Assembly: GCF_964204865.1 (NCBI RefSeq)
Contig: NC_135258.1
Span: forward strand, 8,866,001 to 8,930,000
Origin: Styela clava
Lineage: Eukaryota
Reading direction: 5' to 3'
DNA length: 64,000 bases
The translations under genes and the position numbers were made by a program. This document shows positions 18,849-58,900 of the stretch, piece by piece. The notes below the pieces were generated by a model, which was not told where the DNA came from, did not search any database, and saw only the letters and a list, made by a program, of their open reading frames with translations. Within the stretch, counting starts at the first letter, position 1, and every line of letters starts with the position of its first letter.

Positions 18849-20801
18849 CTGAAACTCCATCACAATTAAAAATAATCTCACTGAACGTAAACGGACTAGA
18901 AAAAAATTGGAAAAAACTAAAAATCTTCATAACTTACCACAACCCAGACATTATTGCTTTACAAGAAGTCCACAGAGTTAAAAGCAACGTTTTCGAGAAA
19001 CGACTTAAAACATGGGGTACAGATTATTTATTAACTCACTGACCGACTTCGATAAAAGGGATGACCAAAGATTCTTCCAAGGCACCGCCACTGCAGTAAG
19101 AGAAAACCTATGTGCAACGCACAGCCTTGAATATGTAATATTCATACCTTGTAAAGCGTGATCGACATCAATGACGAACTTACAAACCAAAGACAAGCTA
19201 TCTCTAGTAAATGTTTATGCACCTCCCAGAAGAGGCGACAGAAAAACTAGAATGTTCTGCAAAAAGCTGATAAACTTTGTGAGAGAGATCAAGCATATTC
19301 CAATTTAACATGGTTCACCAAAAATAGACGTCAGCAACGAAAACTCATTTACACTAGGGAACCCAGAAAGAAAATGGAAAGACTTTATACAAGCTTACAA
19401 CTACATAGACACCTATAGATATCACTGGCCCGATAAAAGATTATATACAATTACCAGGAGGAGACAATCCCGACGAATAGATCGAATATATATTCCGTAC
19501 AACATTAGTCATGAATTAAAAAATACAGAATATTTAGTAAACACCGTTTCAGACCACCACTTGGCATCGCATATCACTTTCAAAAATATTAAGCAAGTTA
19601 AATGGGGATGGGGAACCTAGAAAAACAATACTGCTCATTTTAAGAATGAAAAAGTCAGATTTTTGATAAAAGAGATATACAAAAAAGAAAAACAGTTCAA
19701 CATCAAACCAAGAAATATATTTACTCAATAAAAACCTGCAGCAAGTAGAAAAAAAAAGTGACGTTCAAACAAAAAACAGCAAAAATCAAAGCATTAGAAC
19801 AAAACGAAAGACCAACTAAATATTTCTTTGACAAATTGAAAACTAGAAGACGGAAAACTACTATAGACAGCCTCCAAAACAAAGAAGGAAAGTATTTGAA
19901 AACAAAAAATGAAATACTGGATGAAGCGCAAAAATTTTACCAAACATTATGGAAACAAACGTAAGTAGGGGAGGAAAAAAGAATGGGGGAGTATCTCAAA
20001 ATATATGGAGAAACCATGCTTAGCACTGAGGAAAAAGAAGGAAGAACTATTCAGAACACTGAAACAAATGGACAATTTCAAAACTCCGGGACCAGATGGG
20101 TTATCAAAGGAATTTTACCTTGAATTCTGGGAAATTCTAAAGAATGACCTGCACCAGCTAGTAAACAATGCTATCGCTTTCGACACATTACCCAAAAGTA
20201 GCAAAGAATCGATAGTCACCCTTATCTTTAAAAAAGGAAACTCAAATCACCTAGCAAATTACCGGCCCATATCAAACTTAAATGTAGATTTTAAACTGAT
20301 ATCAAAAATAATAGCTAACCGATTGAAACTTATCTTGGATAAATATATAATGCCAACACAAAAAAGCGCGATTCCCAACCGATCCATATTTGATAGCTTA
20401 CGAAATATTCAAGAAATATGGAATTATACAACAAAATGGAACCTACCTTTATATATAATCAGTTTCGATCAGGAAAAAGCTTTTAATATGGTTAACCAAC
20501 GTTTTTTATTCAAAACCATGACTAAACTAAACTTCAACAAAAATATTATTAAGTTAATCAAAGAAATGTACAATTGTATATACAGCAGAATACAAATTAA
20601 CGGAGCTAAAACCAATAAAATCTTTTTGACCAGGGGAATTAGACAAGGCTGTCCTGCCCATTGAGCATGGCAATGTACACCTTAGCCATGACCCATTGGC
20701 AAGAAAAATCATCGCGAACCAAAAGATAAAAGGATTCAGTATCGGGAAATACAAAACCGTAATTGATCAATTTAGAGACGACAATACAACATACGCGCGA
20801 G
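18845..20801 (+). pseudogene. LINE ORF2 (AP endonuclease + reverse transcriptase), disrupted and truncated
   Basis: ORF fragments 18845-19042, 19758-19964 and 20005-20664 carry EN and RT motifs. Homology ends just after the catalytic-site motif. Confidence 0.9.
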
Positions 20802-28006: not shown

Positions 28007-31000
28007 ATGCCGAGTTTCTATTCAGCTTGTGTTGTTCTCATTCCTGTACTTCTATCCACAATGGTTTTGAGCAGAAACGTGCATGACCGTTGGTGGTAAG
28101 ATTTTTCTTTCTATAAATTTAAGAACCATTGCACTTAACTAGTTGCAGTGTACGTAATTAGTTGTTATGTTTTATTGGCGATGCAAAACAAAAACCTTCT
28201 TCTTTTAACCAATTCGTCACTGCTGGAGAGAAGAGCTCATACGACAATGTAAAGACATGATGACTATTTAGCTAATGTCGAATCGTATTTCACCTGCATG
28301 ACTATGAGCAAATATTATTTCGGACTATAAAAGTTAACAAATAGTTTTTTTTCGATCCATGGTTTTAATTGATAATTTTTTATTCAAGAAAAATTTCTTC
28401 AAACGACAAATCATATATAACCTACGGATATAATAAGTACAACTTACTTTATAAACACTTTTTTACAAAATAATTTTCAGGTCCGTCGCACAAGATTCCA
28501 TTCGCGATATGGTACAGAGAAATAGATCTATTTGTCAAAAAGTAGAAGGATTCACACAATACCAAAAGAGATGGTGTAAGACGAATAAAGCATTTATGAA
28601 GTTTGTAATCGAGGGAGCGAGACAAGGAATCTCGGAATGTAAATATCAGTTTCGCAATGATCGATGGAATTGCTCAACAGAAGAAAAAAAATGGATATTT
28701 TATGGAAAATTTATAAAATATCACGGTGACTATCTAGTGAAATATTTGAACATTTCTTTAGTTTCAACGCTTAAAACGCAACTGACACTGAGTTAAGTCG
28801 GCTGTGATGATATAATGTAACCTAATAACTAACACTATTCCAATTATTGGGAATGAAATTGACCCATATGAATCGTTTTGTTGTTATGTTGTTTTTGTGA
28901 AAAAATCGTCTTTTTTCTTCAACTACTCGACCATTGAAGATTGTTGTTGTCGCTAGAAGGGTATTTTGTTTTTTTAAAAATATTTGTTTGAATTTGTTTT
29001 TCACTTCAAAGTTTTATGTGATGAACTCATAAAAATTAGCCGTTTTCAAGCAGTCTGTTACATTCAATGAAAAAAATTGAATTTAAACTTAATTGAAATT
29101 AAATTTTAGTATAATAAATTTTTTAATTTCATTTTTTTGTTCTAATTTTTCCTATTCAAAATGATTTGCATTTCAGGATCTCGAGAAAGCGCATTTGCAC
29201 ATGCTATAACTGCTGCTGGCGTAGTACATGCCATATCTCAAGCTTGTGCAACTAATAGTCTTCCACCCGAAGCTTGTCCCGATGTAAGTTTAATTGGATT
29301 TAGTTTATGACATTTTCTATCGCCCCCTCTTTCACGATGAATGACAAAACAACATGCTATAGGTTATAAGTATCACAGATATCTACAAACCTACAATGTG
29401 ACTATAAATGACTTTCTTATCATTATTATTCTTTTACGAGTCTTTTAGCAATCAATTTTAGTGGACACGAAATGCGTCATCAAAATTAAAAATTGCGCAT
29501 TTTGTGGCGGTTCCGCGTTAGTGGCCGTGTCCATATAATTTGCTGCCTAGGAATATTTAACACAAATTCGAGTCATTCCGCTAACGAAGTTTTTTATTTA
29601 CATAAATTCAGTCTTGGATCAGTATTTAATTAAAAAAGGCGTGTTCGTGGAAAAATGATGTCATCCGACGTTTTGCCTTTTTTGGTTCATTTTCATAAAA
29701 AATCAAAAATAATCCATAATTCATAATAATATGGATTGATGTTAATTTACAAACGGTTGTATGTATGAATAAATCTCATATAACTATGCATAAATATTGC
29801 TTCAAAATAATAATAAAACAATTTATTATCAATTTCCATTAAGGATGGTCTGTACAGCAAATTCGCAAGTGGGTTAGTGAAATATTTTCTTAACAATAAA
29901 AGACACAGACGAGGACTGGATCGCCGACTAGTAATGGACGATCACAATAACAAAGTTGGGAGGATGGTATGTAATGTAAACACGTATATTTTTAGTTTTT
30001 ATTCTGATTTGCTGTCATTTCTATTAGTGAAATTTGCTCGTAAACAGGTGAGTAATTTGAAAATATTAGAAGATTTGAAAACTATTGTACTGTTTATGAA
30101 TATTTTATTACAAAATCCAGAAAAACAGCTGTTATGCTTTTTTTTTAATTCTTACTCAAATTAAACATCATCTCATTTGCTGACCTTCAACGTTTTTATG
30201 AAACCTCGAATAATAATACGAATGGCTCACGAATTTTGTTTCCTTTCTGGATTCCTATTCAAATGAAATGCAAAATTGGATAAACCTTTATAAACCGTTA
30301 GGATGTGAGATATTTACAGAATAATGAGTAAATATTGTTTCAAAAGTTCCAAGCTAAGCAGGGCTTATATGTAAAAATTACAGTCGTCTTTTGAAATTCG
30401 TAGAAGGCGAGAGACTACTTATCTGGCCAAGTTTTGACATTATAGAAAATAAGATTAAAAAAACTTTCTTTGTTAATGAAGGCGTTTTATATCTTTTCGA
30501 ATCAATTTTGGGCGCTCCAGAAGTGTGTGCGTAAAGGGACTGAAACCTATGGGCAGGGGTATATTCACTTGGTTAACACAGACAGCCACCGAACTTGTGA
30601 TAGAAATAAAATAAGGAAAATTGGAGAAAAATTATGGCCTAACCCTAACCTGGTACACACACTATACGGGAGTATCCAATTTTGGACGCGAAAAAACTCG
30701 GCAATCATTGAGTATAATTAGCTTATTATATTCGTCCGTCTGGTTTTGACAGGCTGTTGTAAATACGTCCGAGAAAAAGTGCAAATGTATCGATGTACCG
30801 GAAAATATGGAAATATGCAACAAAACATTCTGCTGGGAGGATGTTGAGGATTTTCGAGTAATTGGCAATACATTGAGAAAAGCATATTTTAATGCAAGTC
30901 AATTTTGGATACCGCGAGACGAAATTGCATCTGGGAATCTGAATACCAAACTCAAAACCGATCTCAAATCTAACACCGAGCTTGTATATTTTAATGGTTC

Positions 31001-31217
31001 TCCAGACCTTTGCTACCGTGTACCGAGAAACAACTATTATGGAACTCGCTCCCGTGTATGCAATGCTACAGGGTCGGAGTTCGGAAGCTGTGAGTATTTG
31101 TGCTGCGGTTATGGCTACGAAGCGAAAATGTTTGAAGTTGTCGAATTATGCAATTGTGACACTCAAAATAAATGCTTCAGATGTGTGCGCATGGAACAGC
31201 GCCATGTATGTAAATAA
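28007..31217 (+). CDS. Wnt: Divergent Wnt-family protein copy B, 5 exons, 342 aa, no acylation serine
   Basis: Exons 28007-28095, 28481-28725, 29177-29283, 29844-29966 and 30753-31217 sum to 1029 nt in frame. Signal peptide plus WW. Motifs ECKYQFRNDRWNC, SRESAFAHAITAAGVVHAISQAC, HNNKVGR, LVYFNGSPDLC, CCGYGY. Subfamily not assignable by eye. Confidence 0.92.
30511..30676. mobile_element. MITE derivative in Wnt B intron 4, related to 20802-21037
   Basis: Shares AAATAAGGAAAATTGGA.AAAAATTAT.GCCTAACCCTAACCTG. 8-bp TSD CAATTTTG. Confidence 0.75.
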
Positions 31218-42304: not shown

Positions 42305-42312
42305 TATAAAAA
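42305..42312 (+). promoter_or_regulatory. TATA box of the peptide gene
   Basis: TATAAAAA about 30 nt before a probable short non-coding exon that ends at a GTGAGA donor (42368). AP-1-type TGAGTCA at 42034. Confidence 0.55.
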
Positions 42313-42678
42313 GGGTGAATAAACATCTTTAGCATCACTTCACTTTACGAAGACGAAGAAGATTCGGGTGAGATTTTTGAAAATTCGTATTTTCTATGTA
42401 ATAATTTCTATGTGAGTTTATCATTGTTTTTACCTTTGTTAACACGAATCTTACAAACAGCCATCACAATAAAGAATTTCAAATTCGAATTTATTTTTCT
42501 GTTTTTATCACGAAGTCCGTAATATTCCGAGTTGTTTTTAATTGGAATTCGTTTTACTTCCAAAAATTAACAAGGATTATTTTCTAAGAGCCAAACAAAC
42601 CTTGCTTTTTCGAGTTTAATTATCTAAAACGAAAATTCTTATTTAATTTAATATCATTCAATTTCAGAAAACAAAATC

Positions 42679-43895
42679 ATGAAAACCGCAATCATTCTAG
42701 CTTTGGTAGCATTATTTGTTGCTGATGTCTCAGGAGGATGGGGAAGCTTTACAAAGGCCATGAAAAAAGCAGGTTCAACCGCGCTCAAAGCAGCGACAAG
42801 TCCGTAAGTAATTTATTCACACTTTCAATACGCATTCATGTAATAACATATTGACTATTTTTGCATTCAGATATTTCCAAAAGTTAATATCACCATTTTG
42901 AAATTGTAAATAAAAAGCATTTATGGATAAATATATATTTTTAATGACATTTTTTATGCTTTACCAAATCTCGAGATTTTAGTTATCCACCGTCCACGAT
43001 CTCTGATTTATTCACATTCTCTTTTTAGAACTGGTCAAACATTAATGAAATATGGACTACGAATGGCTCTAGGTGATGTTCGTGCAATTAGAGAAATGGT
43101 GAGATTCAATTTATGGCCTTTTATATTTGTGTACAACAACAGTGTAAAAACCTACACAAAACTGGGAAAATAAATATACACAGATACCAGATTCTTCAAA
43201 TATTTGTTTATTCAGCAATAGCGAATGATCAAAAGTTGAAAAATGATTTAAAGAATTTATTTGTAAAAAAATCGAAATTTCACCTTTGCGACAATTTTTT
43301 TATACATTCAAATATTTGAAATTGATTAAAATAATATTTAGTGTCCTTGATTTTATAAAAACTCAAGCGATTGATAATCCATGCATTTATTTTTACAATT
43401 AGAAGTTTTCAACTGTAAAACTAGATCATATTAGTTACATTCGCAATTAAACAATGCATTCATATTTTTCCAGGACGATGCTGAAGTCAGTCAAATGTTT
43501 GATGCAATTCAAATGATCAGAGAAATGGACGACGGTATGTTTTTTAGATAGTATCAAAAAAACTAATAAAACAAACACAGAAAAATACCCATTTTAAAGC
43601 ATTCTTTATCTAGTTAAAATTTATCTTGCCAGAAATTTAAAAAATTATCAACGAATATTTTAACTCCCAAGATTATGAAGATATATAAGTAAGACACTTA
43701 ACTGTCCACCCTGCCGTTATTTGATGGACATTTTCTCTATTTTATATACATTTTCGAATGTATTATTTCACTATATATTCATCAGTGAATCTAGTAAAAT
43801 ATTCAACTATTTAGAAAGTATCATTGAATTGTAATACCGTTTCAGACGAGTTCCGCACCTTCGCAAAAGCAGCGAGCCTGGAAGATTTTGAATAG
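42679..43895 (+). CDS. Styelin/cecropin-like antimicrobial peptide precursor, 101 aa, 4 coding exons
   Basis: Exons 42679-42803, 43029-43098, 43474-43534 and 43846-43895 (306 nt, phases 2/0/1 consistent) give MKTAIILALVALFVADVSG-GWGSFTKAMKKAGSTALKAATSPTGQTLMKYGLRMAL-G-DVRAIREMDDAEVSQMFDAIQMIREMDDDEFRTFAKAASLEDFE. AATAAA at 44076 and 44115. Confidence 0.88.
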
Positions 43896-44710
43896 GGAGT
43901 GATGACGAAGAGTGACGACGAAGAGTGAAAAAATACATGTCATAATATTAATTTGCCAAACACATCTTGTCTGATCATTATATATATTTTAAATAAGTTG
44001 ACAAATAACAAATATAAATTATCAATATTGATTTCGTTTTGTTAGCTGTTGTTTTGTCTCACTCTTTGTTGTTTGAATAAATGAAAGTAATCTGAAGATA
44101 CGTGTTTATCAATCAATAAAATATTCGAGTTTTACAACATTTTAAACAGGTAACACTCACAGTAGCAAAAAGTAATAACGGCGTTTTTTGTTGTTGTTGC
44201 ACGACTCTATTTCATATAGCTAACGCGAGAATATCAATTGACACTACATTGGATCGCCATTAGGAATAATATCAACGCGCACTGAAAATTAAGTCGAACA
44301 ACCAAAGACGCACAAAGTAAATCGAAAAAAGTGTTTATTGCTCAGAAAAACTTGCTACTGGGGTCAAAAAAGTGTATTTCAATTTAGCTTTGCCATGTAA
44401 TCCAAAAATCTCGCAAGGCAAAATTAAATACCGGTAATAAAAAACCTATTTAGTTTTTTCACTGTAAGTATTGCACTATTTTGAATGTTTGCTGGAAATG
44501 CACGAACAAACCTGCGCCAATTCTCTATGCATTATACCGCCATTTCAAATATTTTTACCGCGATATCTCACGAAGACAAGATTGAATCTGCTCCAGATTT
44601 TGCATGTACATTCATCATATGTCGTACCAGAAGCCTATTGATTCGTATAATTAGCGAGTTATTAATTAATTAATGATGGGACACAAGGTGTCACTATGGA
44701 GTAAGAGCGC

Positions 44711-47700
44711 TGTTTTGGGGTATCCCCTAACTTTCGATCGATAAGTCTTCGGTCTCTGACCGATATTCTCCTTTAGCCAATTGATATGATATCCAAGCTT
44801 TGAGCATACAAAACATCTGTTGTCTTCTACATGTGAAAACCTGAGTGAACTCAGAGTTTTCTTATAGAGTAAAATTGTCATCAGCTACCTAGCATTCCTC
44901 AAATGTTTGTCACATACCAAACGTGAACTTAGACTACCATGATGTGAAACAGCTCCACGGAACCAAGGAATACATGGTAGCCAAAGTTTAATGGGTAAAG
45001 AACCATATATACCAACGGTGGGCAATTATACGGCTCCTCTCGCTAACATATAATTTTATCCAAATTCCACTATTGCAGAATCTGTAGTGTAACAGTTTTT
45101 TTTAAATTTATCAAGCGATTGAAGGAGTTTTCATTTATGATTGAGACAAATTATGTCTTAGTATGAAAATTGTTGTAGCGTGGACTTCAAATTTAAATCA
45201 GTCATGCGACAAATCTCAGGTGACAATGGTCACATGTTTATTGCTGCGTTGGCAGTATTACAAAAAACAATATGTCGGCAATTCAACATTTTCGTCTGAA
45301 CCGATCCGAATAATTCACTATTCGATTCTATTTAAATATTCGATTCGAAATTCTCAATTACAGGAACCAGATATTCGAATCTACCACAATACTATGTGCT
45401 CATTAAAAAGTGTGTGCGACGATCAATGACTTTTGTGGAGACCATTAGGCCAGCAAATATTCAACCTTTTAAACATGCATTGTTTTAAAATTACAATATA
45501 GTTATTGCAGTTTGAAAATTAAACTCTAAAAGTCAAACTGTTAATAAAACCCGTTTACGAATAAATGTAACTTTGTCATCAAATACCATATGGCAGCGAT
45601 TTCCAACGGGTGCGCCTCGGCGATTTGCTCATCGAGCTCCGAAAATTACCAGTATTGTGTTAAGCATAACTAATATAGGATTAAATATTTTACACATTGT
45701 ATTTATGAAATATCTTTTATTGTTTTTTAATTTCAACTGCTGTGTATATGAACTAGTGAATTCATTCCCGTTTTTTGTCGTTTACTTTCTGTTACATGAT
45801 GTCTGCTTTATTGTTTCGAAACGTAACGTTATAGGTAAATGCAACTTGTTGCAGTTTTTTTATATGCTGAGCCGAGGCTACCGAACTTGAGTGATTTTTA
45901 GTATAGTGATTCAGAGGAAAATCAGGAAGAGATGTGGAAAAAGAGTTAAAATCGCGTTTATTCTTTAGGCATACATGTTTACCAACTTTAAGATGCATAT
46001 GATACACATTAACCATTACAAAATTGCAATTTAATTAAAAGCAGCAAATTTTTTCATGTAAGTGCCCCTTAATTTTTCTTCCCTCGTAATTTGGCGCACG
46101 AACAAAAGTTGATAGACTACTTCCATACGGTATTACTTATAAGTTCGTTTATTATATTAAAATCGGAAGAAACTTTGTTATCACCGTGTTTACAATTTAA
46201 TGGGCAATTTCCCGTAATTAGTCGGAGACAATACAACTTTGTACTCAACCACTTCCGTAAGATTATGACTCGGTGTTACGTTACTTATTTTGGGTATTTA
46301 TAAATTCACAATATGGAAATTTCTTAACACGATTTGTTTTTGTTTTTTTCTATAATGCCAAGCATGATTATCAGTTCATCACTTACAGTCTTACATAATT
46401 GGAAGTTATCTCACAAACACAACTTCATGCACTGAACGTTGGAGATTTTGGTTATTTTAATTACAAGCTGTAACTTAAACATAAACATTGATGAAGATTT
46501 TAGTTAAAATAAAATAAATTGAATATTATATTTTGATCAAACGAAAATTTTACTACCATATTGATTGGTAATGGGTGTTTCGAGCAAAAATTTGTGCGAA
46601 TAAAATTATTTCACTGGTGGTAATACAATTGCTAACAAATAAATTGCCATGGAACTTGTAAAAGCAGTTGTAACTTATGTGGTGAAAGTTGTTATCTATA
46701 CTTGTAGACACATTTGGTGAATAATAAAAGTAAGGTGCGCTCCGTTGCTAAGACTCTGTTTTTGCAAATCTGCGCAGGCGTATTCAGAAGTCATAAAGCA
46801 GAATAACATTTTTATTAGAACGATGGTTCCCAAACTTTTTTGATATTTCTTCCCCGACGTATTTTTAAGGTCTCAATTTAACGGAGCATTTGCTCTAGCT
46901 TTGTGTAACTTGCACTCTGTTATAATGGAACTAAAATAAAAATATTAATAATATCACATGCTAACAGGAGAGCTATGCTTAAATATATGGACACGTAACA
47001 GCAAATACTACAGTCTACAAATATATTGACACCAAGCGAAGCAGTACTGCAGTAGTTCACCTTATCTTTAGCATTTCCAGTACCGGTAAACTCAAAATAC
47101 TTCCGAGTTTCGAGTAGCGAGGATAAGCAATCTGTCTGAGTGATGTATTTTACGTTTCCAGTAATTTATGTATCTGGAGGACCAAATACAAGAAAAAAGT
47201 TACATACAATTATATATCTCCCAAGTATTCGAGATTCGATTCGATTCGAAAAAAATATTTGATCTGATTCTGAAATCATCAGGTATTCGAAAATGCCCAG
47301 CCCTAACAACTAGTCATGTCAACCCCCCGATCTAAACGAGACAATAACAAACAAAAAATTTCATGTTATGTTTATGTGCTTACAGAGTCTCATATTTCAC
47401 AAAACGGAACACGAAATATCTCCCCATAACTGTTTTGGGGTATCCCCCTAACTTTCGATCGATAAGTCTTCGGTCTCTGACCGATATTCTCCTTTAGCCA
47501 ATTGATATGATATCCAAGCTTTGAGCATACAAAACATCTGTTGTCTTCTACATGTGAAAACCTGTGTGAACTCAGAGTTTTCTTATAGAGTAAAATTGTC
47601 ATCAGCTACCTAGCATTCCTCAAATGTTTGTCACATACCAAACGTGAACTTAGACTACCATGATGTGAAACAGCTCCACGGAACCAAGGAATACATGGTA

Positions 47701-50700
47701 GCCAAAGTTTAATGGGTAAAGAACCATATATACCAACGGTGGGCAATTATACGGCTCCTCTCGCTAACATATAATTTTATCCAAATTCCACTATTGCAGA
47801 ATCTGTAGTGTAACAGTTTTTTTTTAATTTATCAAGCGATTGAAGAAGTTTTCATTTATGATTGAGACAAATTATGTTTTAGTATGAAAATTGTTGTAGC
47901 GTGGACTTCAAATTTAAATCAGTCATGCGACAAATCTCAGGTGACAATGGTCACATGTTTATTGCTGCGTTGGCAGTATTACAAAAAACAATATGTCGGC
48001 AATTCAACATTTTCGTCTGAACCGATCCGAATAATTCACTATTCGATTCTATTTAAATATTCGATTCGAAATTCTCAACTACAGGAACCAGATATTCGAA
48101 TCTACCACAATACTATGTGCTCATCAAAAAGTGTGTGCGACGATCAATGACTTTTGTGGAGACCATTAGGCCAGCAAATATTCAACCTTTTAAACATGCA
48201 ATGATTTAAAATTACAATATAGTTATTGCAGTTTGAAAATTAAACTCTAAAAGTTAAACTGTTAATAAAACCCGTTTACGAATAGATGTAACTTTGTCAT
48301 CAAATACCATATGGCAGCGATTTCCAACGGGTGCGCCTCGGCGATTTGCTCATCGAGCTCCGAAAATTACCAGTATTGTGTTAAGCATAACTAATATAGG
48401 ATTAAATATTTTACACATTGTATTTATGAAATATATTTTATTGTTTTTTAATTTCATCTGCTGTGTATATGAACCAGTGAATTCATTCCCGTTTTTTGTC
48501 GTTTACTTTCTGTTACATGATGTCTGCTTTATTGTTTCGAAACGTAACGTTATAGGTAAATATATGCTGAGCCGAGGCTACCGAACTTGAGTGATTTTTA
48601 GTACAGGGATTCAGAGGAAAATCAGGAAGAGATGTGGAAAAAGAGTTAAAATCGCTTTTATTCTTTAGGCATACATGTTTACCAACTTTAAGAAGCATAT
48701 GATACACATCAACCATTACAAAATTGCAATTTAATTAAAAACAGCAAATTTTTTCATGTAAGTGCCCCTTAAGTTTTTTTCCTTCGTAATTCGGCGCACG
48801 AACAAAAGTTGATAGACTGCTTCCATACGGTATTACTTATAAGTTTGTTTATTATATTAAAATCGGAAGAAACTTTGTTATCACCGTGTTTACAATTTAA
48901 TGGGCAATTTCCCGTAATTAGTCGGAGACAATACAACTTTGTACTCAACCACTTCCGTAAGATTATGACTCGGTGTTACGTTACTTATTTTGGGTATTCA
49001 TAAATTCACAATATGGAAATTTCTTAACACGATTTGTTTTTGTTTTTTTCTATAATGCCAAGCATGATTATCAGTTCATCACTTACAGTCTTACATAATT
49101 GGAAGTTTTCTCACAAACACAACTTCATGCACTGAACGTTGGAGATTTTGGTTATTTTAATTACAAGCTGTAACTTAAACATAAACATTGATGAAGATTT
49201 TAGTTAAAATAAAATAAATTGAATATTATATTTTGATCAAATAAAAATTTTACTACCATATTGATTGGTAATGGGTGTTCCGAGCAAAACTTCGAGCGAA
49301 TGAAATTATTACACTGGTAATAATACAGTTGCTAACAAATAAATTGCCATAGAACTTGTAAAAGCAGTTGTAACTCATGTGGTGAAAGTTGTTATCTATA
49401 CTTGTAGACACATTTGGTGAATAATAAAAGTAAGGTGCGCTCCGTTGCTAAGACTCTGTTTTTGCAAATCTGCGCAGGCGTATTCAGAAGTCATAAAGCA
49501 GACTAACATTTCTATTAGAACAATGGTTCCCAACCTTTTTTGATATTTCTCTCTCGACGTATTTTTAAGCTCTTAATTTTTTCCCCGCTACATATAAAAA
49601 CTGTTTGTATAAGGTATATATATATTTAACGGAGCATTTGTTCTAGCTTTGTGTAACCTGCACTCTGTTATAATGGAACTAAAATAAAAATATTAATAAT
49701 ACCACATGCTAACAGGAGAGCTATGCTTAAATATATGGACACGTAACAGCAAATACTACAGTCTACAAATATATTGACACCAAGCGAAGCAGTACTGCAG
49801 TAGTTCACCTTATCTTTAGCATTTCCGGTACCGGTAAACTCAAAATACTTCCGAGTTTCGAGTAGCGAGGATAAGCAATCTGTCTGAGTGATGTATTTTA
49901 CGTTTCCAGTAATTTATGTATCTGGAGGACCAAATACAAGAAAAAAGTTACATACAATTATATATCTCCCAAGTATTCGAGATTCGATTCGATTCGAAAA
50001 AAATATTTGATCTGATTCTGAAATCATCAGGTATTCGAAAATGCCCAGCCCTAACAACTAGTCATGTCAACCCCCCGATCTAAACGAGACAAAAACAAAC
50101 AAAAAATTTCATGTTATGTTTATGTGCTTACAGAGTCTCATATTTCACAAAACGGAACACGAAATATCTCCCCATAACCGTTTTGGGGTATCCCCCTAAC
50201 TTTCGATCGATAAGTCTTCGGTCTCTGACCGATATTCTCCTTTAGCCAATTGATATGATATCCAAGCTTTGAGCATACAAAACATCTGTTGTCTCCTACA
50301 TGTGAAAACCTGAGTGAACTCAGAGTTTTCTTATAGAGTAAAATTGTCATCAGCTACCTAGCATTCCTCACATGTTTGTCACATACCAAACGTGAACTTA
50401 AACTACCATGATGTGAAACAGCTCCACGGAACCAAGAGAATACATGGCAGCCAAAGTTTAATGGGAGAAGAACCATATATAACAACGATGGGCAATTATA
50501 CTGCTCCTCTCGCTAACATAGAATTTTATCCAAATTCCACTATTGGAGAATCTGTAGTGTAGAAGTTTTTTTTTAATTCATCAAGCGATTGAAGAAGTTT
50601 TCATTTATGATTGAGACAAATTATGTTTTAGTATGAAAATCGTTGTAGCGTGGACTTCAAATTTAAATCAGTCAAGCGACAAAAACAGGTCACAATGGTC

Positions 50701-51986
50701 ACATGTTTATTGCTGCGTTGGCAGTATTACAGCTTGGTTGCGGTTAGTCTCAGTCACAGTGCGATATGTCCCGCACCGCTTGGTCTACGTATTGCCCACA
50801 CTTTCAAAAACTCACAGATAGGATGGAAACACGCAAGTCAAGTACTTTCGCATCAAATACTTCGTAATATCATTTGTTGTTATTATACGTTTGGGTAAAT
50901 TCTCTGTTCAAGGTATTCTAATATTAATAATTTCAAAAATTATGCGACTCTCACATATTTCTGACTTGATGCATGCGGCTGTTATACTGAAAAAATTTGC
51001 CCACCCCTGATATATATATAAATTCATGCATTTTTTTCATTATGTTCGCGTGTTTTATTATGTTAGCGTGTTATTATATTCATTTCAATTGTGAGGCATT
51101 TTGGGTTGCGAATGTGCGTTTGTGAGATTTAATAATAATTATCTGCCGATTGGTTGTTTCAGAATCGGATTGAATATTTTTTTTTCGAATCGAATCGAAT
51201 ATCTTATTTAATTTAACTCTATTATACTGTAATACTGAAAAGATAAAATCACTCAGTTACTTCGCTGAGCGTTAAAACATAATGATAAACATGTTTGAGC
51301 CATAACTAAATAAAAAAAATAAGTTTATTTGTCCAAATTGCTTTCTAAATATGAGGCTTCAATAAAGAAAATTGTGAAATTCCCCTCGATCTTTGGCGGA
51401 CAGAAAGAAAAAACAATATGTCGGCAATTCAAAATTTTCGTCTGAACCGATCCGAATAATTCACTACTCGATTCTATTTAAATATTCGATTCGAAATTCC
51501 CAGCCCAAGAAACCAGAGATTCAAATCTATCACAATACTTTGCGCTCATCAAAAAGTCTGTGCGACGTCCAATAACTTTTGTGGAGACTATTCGGCCCCA
51601 AATATTCAACGTTTGAAACATGCAATGTTTTAAAATTACGATGTAGTTATTGCAGTTTGAAAATTAGGCCTCCAAAGTAAAACTGTAAATAAACCCGTTT
51701 ACGAATAGATGTAACTTTGTCATCAAATACCATATGGCAGCGATTTCCAACGGATGCGCCTCGGCGATTTGCTCATCGAGCTCCTAAAATTACCAGTATA
51801 TGTGTTAAGCATAACTAATATAGGATTAAATATTTTACACATTGTATTTATGAAATATCTTTTATTGTTTTTTTTTTATTTCAACTGCTGTGTATATGAA
51901 CCAGTGAATTCATTTCCTATTTTTATTGTTGTTTACTTTCTGTTACATTGTGTCTGCTTTATTGTCACGAAACGTAACGTTATAGG
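44711..51986 (+). repeat. Tandem segmental repeat, about 2.7-kb unit, two full copies and one partial
   Basis: Units start at about 44711, 47431 and 50179 (periods 2720 and 2748) and are near-identical. Much of the unit is homologous to about 39830-42145. Confidence 0.93.
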
Positions 51987-55998: not shown

Positions 55999-58900
55999 TC
56001 AATTGCATTCATGTCTAATGTCAATACGACTACAAATTTCGGGTTTGCCAGTTGTGCTGCCGTTACAAATTTCATCAACACGAAACTTGGTGGTTTTGTA
56101 TCCGCGTCCACAGCACATTATGTTGCAATCGTGCATTCCAATGGTTCTCACATCGCATTCGCGTCCGACTGTTCCCAATATTCCTCTTTCGGCATTCCGT
56201 TCACAATAGTTTGGCGATGCTTGCAAGTATATAAGCTCGGAATCGGTTGGTTTTCTCATCAATCTTCTGGCGACTAGTTCACCATTTTTCAACTGTTCAA
56301 CTTCGATCGCTCTGTCGTATGCCTTTTTCAATTCATCTGCTACAACACGAAAATCGCGAACTTGCTTCCAGCATGTTTTTAAATCACAAGAATCCTTTAA
56401 ACCATGGCATACACAAATGGTTTGCGATGTCCTGACAACGGCCTGTTAAAGTAACCAGTATTTAGTTGACTAAAGATTCAATATTATTTTTATGAGTTGC
56501 TGAGTAAATGATATATACAAAAGAAACAATATTTGAGTGCGATTCATGCTTCTCCATTTTATTTAGAGACGATACTACTACTTACGCCGTGAAAAATAAA
56601 ATGAAAATAATTCTACTATTTTGGACTCTATTGTTATAGTTGCATACTGCTGTGTTGAACCCTGCTCTTCGCCTAGGCTGGATGTGACAATAGGTGTAAC
56701 ATTTATCAATATATAAAATGACTGTGGCATATAAACATCGATTCAAATTATTCTTATCTTATTAGCTAATAATAATTGAGTTCTTCAAATAAAATCTTCT
56801 GAGAAGTAGTTAATAAAATGAATAACATCTAGTTCTTTTGAGTAATATACAAAAATATATTATATATACTATCAACCTTTTTTTCTGGCTAAATCAGTGA
56901 ATATGCTGTTGTAAGACATCTAGTTGATATCAAAGTAGTTATCCCTCGTAGCTGATGAAAGCCACTGAATTTTATAAAACAACACCTTCCGCCAAACGAC
57001 ATTGTGTTAGTTATTCTATAATCCATATTATGTGAAATGAACATATCTAAGACAGTATGTGAGATCTAAGACAGACTGATACCAACCATTCTTCCGATGT
57101 TATTGTTGTGAATGTTCATTATTTGTCTCTTTCTTGATGATTTTTTTCGTTTCTGACTATTTATAAAATCCTTCAGCAACTCGCTGGCATGAGAGGCATA
57201 AGGACTATTCTCTCCCCAGTCCTAATAAATACCACATACATAATATTACGTTTTTATACATATCTGGCGAAATCGCTCCGGGAATTATTGAAGATATTAA
57301 CATGTATAATATATTCTGTTTTGATTCATATATATAAATATATATATATAAAATAATTATATGTATATAGGCTCCATTCTCGACAGGGTAAGTTGGGTAA
57401 TTTACGTAGTCACGATAATAATGTTTCATTATTGATGATACAACATTTCAAGAAAAAACTATAAATGTATTGCCCAAGTTCATAGTAGAATTATGAATAT
57501 GAGCCAAGTCCCGACATTTTGCACCCGATGTTTCATACTTTTTTCCATTTTCTACATTCAAAGCAACTATCTTTAAAACGAATGGTCAAGCATTCTAAAA
57601 TGACATTGTTTGTTTTAAGTCAGGATTGCAAGTAGAAGATATTAGGTTTTCCGCTTACACGAAGTTAAGAAGCGAAGGCGATACAATTTTTCTGCCTACA
57701 GTCAATGCTTGCATTAAAAATATATTAACAAAAAAAAACATACCAATACTGCACCCGAATAAACAAGCGGTTTTGGGCATCGACGCTTTGGTAGAAGACC
57801 TTGTTGACAAGCTCTTGCAATTGAATGTACAGCTCCAGCAGCTGTTATTGCACGAACAAACGCCATTTCTCTTGTGTCTGGAATAATTGTAGACTTCAAA
57901 TTGAAGGCAGACATAATTCAAATACAATTTGGTAATCTACAATTTCCGGTCATGTTCAGTTAAATTTATTTATTTGAACTTTTCCCTAGCCATGATTACC
58001 TGGAGTCTACCACTCTACCACTTATACAGAATTCGATTCGTAAATATTTGCTACTCAGAGTAAGTTTGTATGACCTTGTGCGTGACGAAGCTGGTCTTGT
58101 GAGTGATAATCAAAGATTGTTGAGATTTCTTTAGAATTTTCTCGTAAATTTCCAATTAAATTGTATTTATTAAGATAGTTAAATAGTGTGATTGATTAGG
58201 ACTATTGGGCACGGTAGTTCGACGCCCTATATATATATGGCTCTACTCGGGCATTAGAACGTAAATAAAGGCAATAAATTGACACCGACACTGTAGCATT
58301 CCATATCGATGTGCCCCGTGATATCTTCAGGGGAAGTTAGATTATCAGAATACTGAAAGTTTGACTAGTCAATTATTCCATATTAAATAATTGTTATCAA
58401 AGGATTCAGAGTGCCGGATGGTATAGGATCATATTATTCTAATACCAGAGGTTTGGCAATCAGATTTGATTAAAAAATGAAATTGAAATAGCCATAGGGA
58501 AGGAAACAAAAAATAAGAATTTTTTTTTTATAAATTAAGGAAAAGTTATATGAACACACCCAAATCTGTTAGTTTTCCAAACACTGAGCTATCGTTAAAA
58601 GTTGGACAATTCCATCTATGATTGCGAAACTGGTATTGACATTCCGATATTCCCTTTCTGGCCCCTTCACTGACAAAGATCATAAAACTGTCTTTTCGTT
58701 TGCACCACTTCTTTTGAAAATTAGTAAATCCGTTCATGCCATCACATATTGAATCGTTATTTTGAAGCGAGTTGTAGGGTCCATCTCGTGCAACAGACCT
58801 TATAAGAAAATGTACAAATGTTACAAACGCCTGTTACGCACTAATCACTAATTGCAGAGATACAATGGGACTAATTGCGTTTTTTGAAGTCGCAACCTCC

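Follow-up and report, generated by a model that had tools for sequence, protein, structure and literature searches.

The 64,000-nucleotide stretch of Styela clava DNA analysed here (the window; positions 8,866,001 to 8,930,000 of NC_135258.1) carries on its forward strand a gene with four coding exons, separated by introns of 225, 375 and 311 bases that are all bounded by GT-AG (Table 1). Joined together, the exons form an open coding sequence of 306 bases that specifies 101 residues, with a GC content of 43%; that of the introns is 25-26%. The RefSeq protein XP_039264430.2 (P0005) has exactly this sequence and is annotated as 'uncharacterized protein LOC120340203 [Styela clava]'. A preliminary description of the window, made from the letters alone, had presented the gene as hidden. 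Its exons are indeed short, but the locus is annotated and is one of 17 of its kind in the genome.

The same description had proposed looking for the splice junctions in transcripts. Each of the three coding introns is absent from contigs in all four sequencing runs compared, which belong to three studies. This comparison used contigs of 4 of the 19 runs listed, presumed to be RNA; matching at 90% likeness also admits reads from close paralogs, and the contigs carry no expression level or tissue. No intronless copy was present among at least 10 genomic matches to exon 2 and at least 14 to exon 4, and only these genome searches speak against a spliced copy in the DNA itself. The X1 contig additionally lacks a 300-base intron in the 5' UTR (one of the four runs); the shorter flank of this joint, between 42366/7 and 42667/8, comprises 31 letters. 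A TATA-like element lies at an equal distance from the 5' exon in 5/5 of the related genes on C10. At the other end, an X5 contig shows a run of A residues behind 44093, 12 bases past AATAAA. One contig from X5 matches exons 2 to 4 without any mismatch, the variable exon included, and its opening stretch is the type of 5' exon that belongs to the next paralog; it is either a recombinant allele or an assembly chimera.

Table 1. Features of the peptide gene and its surroundings (positions are those of the window)
Feature	Positions	Strand	Basis or remark
Reverse transcriptase fragment, probably of a non-LTR retrotransposon	19969..20661	+	PF00078
Inverted duplicated block	21-32 kb		partner beyond the window end, ~87-90% identity
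Wnt C-terminal exon	30750..31214	+	PF00110, E 1e-27
Intronless open frame of 463 codons	32496..33884	+	hydrophobic stretches; no Pfam match at E 0.01
TATA box-like element	42305..42311	+	~30 bases 5' of the first exon; sequence, with function inferred
Non-coding exon 1 (approximate start)	42336..42367	+	joint in X1 contig; GT donor at 42368
5' UTR intron, 300 bases, GT-AG	42368..42667	+	missing from contigs of 1/4 runs
Coding exons 2 to 5	42679..42803, 43029..43098, 43474..43534, 43846..43895	+	joined frame open
Signal peptide, residues 1-19 (predicted cut after Gly19)	42679..42735	+	GRAVY 1.87; aligns with styelin signal
First predicted helix, amphipathic and cationic (residues 20-41), and the first bases of the Pro hinge codon, where exon 2 ends	42736..42803	+	hydrophobic moment; low-confidence model
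Intron, phase 2, within the mature peptide at the hinge	42804..43028	+	absent from contigs of 4/4 runs
Second predicted helix, more hydrophobic (residues 43-56); hypervariable part of exon 3	43029..43071	+	paralog comparison
Gly-Asp junction, predicted to supply the amide and to be cleaved	43072..43077	+	family conservation; analogy with styelins and clavanins
Last part of exon 3, in which the acidic propiece begins; phase-0 donor after Met	43078..43098	+	sequence
Exon 4, first acidic helix of the propiece	43474..43534	+	61/61 bases identical to nearest paralog
Exon 5, coding part: second acidic unit and stop codon	43846..43895	+	internal repeat of the first unit, p 0.0015
3' UTR with AATAAA at 44076-44081	43896..44093	+	A-run in X5 contig
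Unit of ~2.7 kb, tandemly duplicated	44710..50731		95-97% identity; just 3' of the peptide gene
Wnt C-terminal exon	56002..56445	-	PF00110, E 3e-40

The gene is flanked by two Wnt C-terminal exons in opposite orientation, and part of the window forms one arm of a pair of inverted duplicated blocks. A reverse transcriptase fragment and a long intronless frame lie upstream, and a tandem duplication follows on the 3' side.

The encoded precursor has three parts: a signal of 19 residues, a cationic peptide of 37 residues (net charge +6) and, after a Gly-Asp junction, an acidic tail of 44 residues (net -9). The peptide (residues 20-56) holds five Lys, one Arg and no Asp or Glu, has Ser-Pro-Thr-Gly at its centre and is directly followed by Gly57-Asp58. 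The preliminary description had read the same order and composition, and the four-exon frame bears it out. There is one Phe among three aromatic residues, with no His and no Cys. By analogy with the styelins, we infer that the signal is cut after Gly19, a cut after Gly20 being possible too, and the composition of the signal makes secretion of the precursor likely.

The hydrophobic moment of the first helix exceeds that of shuffled sequences (p 0.0004 for residues 20-39; moment 0.40 for residues 20-41, with H 0.24). The second helix (43-56), which Pro separates from the first, is more hydrophobic (H 0.51). For the whole 37-mer the moment is only 0.19, as against 0.38-0.45 for two styelins, because its two helices are out of register. 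A structure model of low overall confidence (mean pLDDT 55.8) places a helix at residues 21-39, a break at 40-41 and acidic helices at 67-81 and 85-94. With its charge, its amphipathic first helix, the lack of Cys and a predicted secretion, the product has the properties of a short secreted Cys-free cationic amphipathic helical peptide. Within the tail there is a repeat (p 0.0015) whose two units each resemble the styelin unit, and this suggests that the longer tail arose by duplication. Pfam searches with single exons and whole precursors gave no family above cut-off and no antimicrobial family at E up to 10, and a PDB search with the precursor and an eight-row profile returned only designed TIM barrels and chance matches. 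The membrane-lytic helix of adenovirus protein VI was considered as a look-alike and dropped, as it was missing from the PDB search results.

The family comprises 17 loci in two clusters, five within 180 kb of C10 (8.84-8.95 Mb) and 12 within 200 kb of C4 (4.84-4.97 Mb). Intact four-exon models could be built at 14 of the 17 loci; they specify 13 distinct proteins, share intron phases 2/0/1 and have 61 and 50 coding bases in exons 4 and 5. The three loci left out, all on C4, have AGG in place of the ATG start, no recognisable exon 4 and an exon 3 that could not be modelled, respectively. All 14 intact members encode a cationic peptide of 22-43 residues with a net charge of +4 to +11 and an acidic tail of 44 residues, and the best 11-residue hydrophobic moment is 0.58-0.83 in every predicted peptide. 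The Asp of the junction is invariant (14/14), preceded by Gly in 13 members and by Ala in one. Trp2 is found in 10/14 members, and a Tyr within the peptide in one.

Identity among the members averages 72% in the signal and 70% in the tail, and 41% in the peptide. A conserved signal and propiece around a variable peptide is a general pattern of antimicrobial peptide precursors (PMC10215159, excerpt). The pN/pS ratio is 0.29-0.39 in the signal and tail and 0.68-0.76 for the pooled peptides, which is below 1, and pS is raised in the peptide as well (0.43 versus 0.19-0.26).

Several members deviate in detail. A single Cys occurs in the predicted peptide of four of the nine intact C4 members (C4:4844732, 4853415, 4882349 and 4897606; L008, L007, L009 and L010), and these peptides could dimerise through a disulfide in the manner of dicynthaurin or halocidin (PMC2866484, excerpt). 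The member with the Ala-Asp junction (P0013, C4:4919788) has a net charge of +11, and for this protein a cut without an amide is predicted. The RefSeq models of two paralogs (P0002, P0004 and P0006-P0010) have N-terminal extensions of 20-36 residues. Since the start codon of P0002 lies between the TATA-like element and the probable start of the transcript, its extension is probably an annotation artefact.

Database searches returned no relatives from other ascidians, a weak indication of their absence since short spliced genes are poorly annotated. Searched against 1.84 billion representatives, the family profile gave seven matches, of which two were family members. Two of the other five, the proteins P0014 and P0018, were considered as relatives and rejected; they are unrelated repeat proteins, in which summed repeats inflate the profile score. 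Both contain cationic helices with a Ser-Pro-x-Gly-Gln hinge that resemble the Styela peptide, probably through convergence, and P0014 is a secreted tandem precursor that matches the Latarcin family.

The nearest paralog is C10:8951155 (LOC120340204), and the differences from it are concentrated in one segment. The first 43 bases of exon 3 differ at 19 positions and the last 27 at none, so that 11 of the 14 residues of the second helix are changed, while exon 4 differs at 0/61 bases and the introns at 95 of 849 aligned bases. The excess in the exon-3 segment over the introns is pronounced in a comparison picked after the data had been seen (Fisher p 1.5e-7). In an earlier RefSeq version of this locus (P0001) six residues are different, five of them within this 14-residue segment, and the loose end of the X1 contig carries a further, intermediate version. 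Judged by these alignments, the divergence of the segment fits diversifying selection or segment exchange. A formal case for positive selection is not made, because the pooled pN/pS is below 1 and pS too is raised in the peptide.

Gly-Asp is equally present at the corresponding junction in styelin and clavanin genes. In the styelin precursor a signal is followed by the peptide, a Gly that serves as the amidation signal and a propiece of 26 residues (PMC8659048, excerpt), and both styelins and clavanins are cleaved before Asp (PMC7387483, excerpt). On this analogy we consider it quite probable that the gene encodes a secreted 101-residue precursor that is trimmed to an amidated cationic peptide of 37 residues, predicted to kill microbes by disrupting their membranes. 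The signal peptide would be removed before Gly-Trp, and during storage the acidic two-helix propiece (-9) would neutralise the +6 peptide. A protease would then cut on the N-terminal side of Asp58, and Gly57 would be converted to a C-terminal amide, as published for the styelins and clavanins of Styela clava. The Lys-rich first helix may lie on anionic membranes while the Ser-Pro-Thr-Gly hinge bends and the second helix inserts; by comparison with the closest assayed peptide in make-up, the microbicidal and salt-tolerant KH.S908.1 of Ciona, membrane disruption is the likely mode of killing.

By structure-activity rules a cationic, moderately hydrophobic helix favours anionic bacterial membranes. 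The strong positive charge of the first helix and its moderate hydrophobicity (H 0.24) are of this kind, and a peptide of similar make-up from Ciona is antibacterial (PMC7387483, excerpt). It is rather unlikely, against this background, that the peptide is membrane-active but directed mainly at eukaryotic cells (fungi, protists, fouling larvae or foreign ascidian cells), or serves to shape the resident microbiota, instead of acting as a broad antibacterial, even though styelin D is reported to be haemolytic and cytotoxic (PMC3039461, excerpt) and the fast change of the second helix among paralogs and alleles fits any race between host and antagonist. Slightly less credible again is a signalling peptide (a neuropeptide or a cytokine-like or chemotactic factor), or a structural or adhesive peptide of the tunic, in which the amphipathic charge would be incidental. 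Amidated secreted peptides are often receptor ligands, and the 1 kb upstream of the TATA box showed no excess of kappa-B-like sites in 5/5 C10 genes. At the junction, however, there is neither a dibasic nor a Gly-Lys/Arg site, conservation is lowest in the supposed ligand and high in signal and tail, and charge and amphipathicity are kept in 14/14 members despite the turnover of sequence. The probable kinship with styelins argues in the same direction.

The preferred reading, an amidated membrane-disrupting peptide, leaves room for further modification. The modified residues of styelin D, namely bromo-Trp2, hydroxylated Lys and Arg, and DOPA, help at high salt (PMC8659048, excerpt). DOPA chemistry of this type cannot be general in the present family, since Tyr occurs in only one of its 14 intact members. 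A search for the amidating enzyme with PF01082 (copper type II monooxygenase) gave 46 exon matches, which do not separate PAM from related monooxygenases. They lie in clusters, for example at C13:10.37-10.76 Mb and C5:14.99-20.99 Mb, and these expanded genes are candidates for the unusual peptide hydroxylations of Styela clava.

The preliminary description had likened the gene to the styelins. The likeness holds for the layout, the Gly-Asp junction and the acidic propiece and does not extend to membership. A first degenerate styelin pattern gave one match in the genome, which is attributable to chance (three in the control). A second pattern, based on the start of styelins A and B in an excerpt of PMC8719109, gave one site, at C10:16.34 Mb. 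Three styelin genes lie at C10 16.31-16.34 Mb, 7.4 Mb from the peptide gene. Database proteins for the styelin exon are styelin-C (P0026), styelin-D-like (P0027) and styelin-C-like (P0028), all of which carry PF17562; the peptide of the third gene (C10:16333887, P0028) mixes features of the other two. Against PF17562 (cut-off 27 bits) none of eight family proteins gave a match at E up to 10, whereas the three styelins scored 124-134 bits, and all nine matches to this domain genome-wide fall within the styelin cluster. The KHK motif, named as conserved in styelins (PMC9966394, excerpt), is absent from 14/14 intact members and present in 3/3 styelins. Styelins are rich in Phe and other aromatics and have 31-32 residues with a 26-residue propiece (PMC8659048, excerpt), in contrast to 37 residues with a single Phe and a 44-residue propiece here; they have five to seven aromatic residues, as against three, and the Pro hinge also sets the present peptide apart from them. 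In a tree the family forms a branch separate from the styelins with 100/100 support (midpoint root for drawing only). Identity as a styelin was rejected for these reasons: no PF17562 match, no KHK, a separate branch, no richness in Phe and separate loci.

Other features are common to both groups. Like the styelin precursor, that of the present family consists of a signal, a cationic peptide that starts with Gly-Trp, a Gly-Asp junction and an acidic propiece that starts with Asp. Pairwise BLASTP aligned P0005 with styelin C end to end, with 28/85 identical residues (33%, E 1e-5). Two of the three coding introns agree in place and phase, one of phase 2 inside the peptide and one of phase 0 that follows a Met near the start of the propiece; the third is in phase 1 here and in phase 0 in the styelins. 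Judged by sequence alone, the styelin genes seem to possess a non-coding first exon as well. The acidic exons of the two groups align from the splice site without a gap (score 22.2 versus -5.1 +/- 8.8, p 0.0013; at most 3.9 when slid).

The profile of the 14 members scored 29.3 bits against styelin C, with a maximum of 11.3 in 1000 region-wise shuffles. Once the signal was removed from this profile, styelin C scored 10.7 versus a shuffle maximum of 9.0, and the other two styelins only about 5 bits. A profile-profile alignment with the styelins (hhalign) covered 21 columns, comprising the signal and Gly-Trp only, and the local similarity of the peptide and the propiece taken alone is weak (p 0.003-0.04). 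As a control, the clavanin propiece shows no likeness (p 0.88). Clavanin signal and peptide also score above shuffles (peptide p 0.011), which indicates that part of the likeness is generic helix periodicity. Taken together, these comparisons give moderate support to common descent: the family and the styelins are probably sister branches, and the former probably lengthened its propiece by internal duplication and is without the KHK motif and the aromatic richness.

A more far-reaching reading is tentative, and we hold it to be possible without favouring it: the styelins may be the small known tip of a larger superfamily of peptide antibiotics in Styela clava, and in the present branch the short exon segment for the second helix may be a hypervariable cassette that selection diversifies and that moves between paralogs and between alleles, next to a propiece that does not change. 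If so, individual animals would differ in their repertoire of membrane-active peptides.

The preliminary description had further named pleurocidin and cecropin types, and neither held up. The first 22 residues of the peptide match pleurocidin (PDB 6rsg, chain A) at 12 of 21 positions, and the first five residues are the same. In piscidin genes exon 1 is non-coding, exon 2 holds the signal and the prodomain is C-terminal (PMC10215159, excerpt), and the order of signal, peptide and prodomain is common to this teleost family and ours. Styelins, moreover, are called homologous to pleurocidin in an excerpt of the review PMC10608444. Common ancestry with fish pleurocidins and piscidins, as a chordate-wide family of helical defence peptides, is nevertheless very improbable. 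The match is not significant (E 0.21) and its matching start is lost in the paralogs. PF08107 has no match in the family proteins, and a genome search with it hit none of the 17 loci and gave two weak matches elsewhere. Exon use differs too: piscidin genes have four exons, with the peptide spread over exons 2-4 and the prodomain in exon 4 alone (PMC10215159, excerpt), as against five exons here.

With cecropins and dermaseptins the peptide shares a predicted helix-hinge-helix shape, in which a cationic first helix is followed by a more hydrophobic second one (Atlas 0.76-0.81). Cecropin and dermaseptin pro-regions are N-terminal. The Atlas look-alikes as a whole belong to the bombinin, cecropin and dermaseptin clusters at 0.75-0.83, a level often reached by shuffled proteins. 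PF00272 (cecropin) had no match in the family proteins scanned, and in the genome-wide search it had none anywhere, the controls included. The cecropin likeness is one of shape only, and both likenesses look convergent, as may arise among helices rich in Lys, Ala and Gly.

That the open frame arose by chance or belongs to a dead gene copy, as its short exons and runs only presumed to be RNA might allow, can be dismissed in view of the identical RefSeq model, the exon joints in 4/4 runs, the 14 intact paralogs with equal exon phases and the pN/pS of 0.29-0.39 in signal and propiece. What remains is a real gene of an apparently undescribed, probable sister family of the styelins, with a known layout and a likely known mode of action. 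The preliminary description had called the peptide possibly undescribed, and no paper naming it was found by accession or locus identifiers or by short peptide motifs in the searchable literature (subscription journals, supplements, theses, patents and APD/DBAASP lay outside this scope). An excerpt of a 2026 review gives clavanins A-E and styelins A-E as the only Styela clava peptides (PMC13518417). With this family the list would grow by at least 13 distinct precursors, compared with only three styelin genes in the genome, and the styelins would become part of a larger family whose gene history can be traced. Its natural variants, which differ almost only in one helix, would form a series for studying what determines how marine peptide antibiotics tolerate salt and which targets they reach. 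Neither the route of processing nor the likely mode of killing is new, so the gain lies in new molecules and their evolution and not in mechanism.

The expectation that the peptide differs from styelins and clavanins was correct, and the genes of both were located elsewhere in the genome. Clavanins (PF05452) also come from Styela clava and have a similar signal, a Gly-Asp junction and an acidic C-terminal piece. They differ in that the peptide is a His-rich 23-mer preceded by an N-terminal pro-region, the coding sequence is spread over three exons (phases 2 and 1) and the propiece is unrelated. Membership in this group was rejected, as the present peptide has no His, the PF05452 matches lie elsewhere and the gene structure is different. 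Two clavanin genes are at C1:10.54-10.57 Mb (L011 and L012), and L012 has three coding exons, among them a probable micro-exon of 20 bases.

Among peptides of other ascidians, the KH.S908.1 and LCAMP precursors of Ciona robusta share the order of signal, cationic amphipathic helix and anionic helix (PMC7387483, excerpt). KH.S908.1 is rich in Lys, Ala and Gly, has a charge of +6 and, as here, Ala-Leu before Gly-Asp; its hydrophobicity is 0.29 versus 0.35 for the Styela peptide, and it was bactericidal at low micromolar concentrations and also in the presence of 500 mM NaCl (PMC7387483, excerpt). With 25 residues and no Pro hinge it is likened by make-up, and no Ciona protein was among the database matches. 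Botryllin, compared by description only, is an ascidian styelin-like peptide that equals the present one in its 37 residues and in being released from a longer precursor, and differs from it in having KHK, a charge of about +11 and a precursor of 158 residues (PMC9966394, excerpt).
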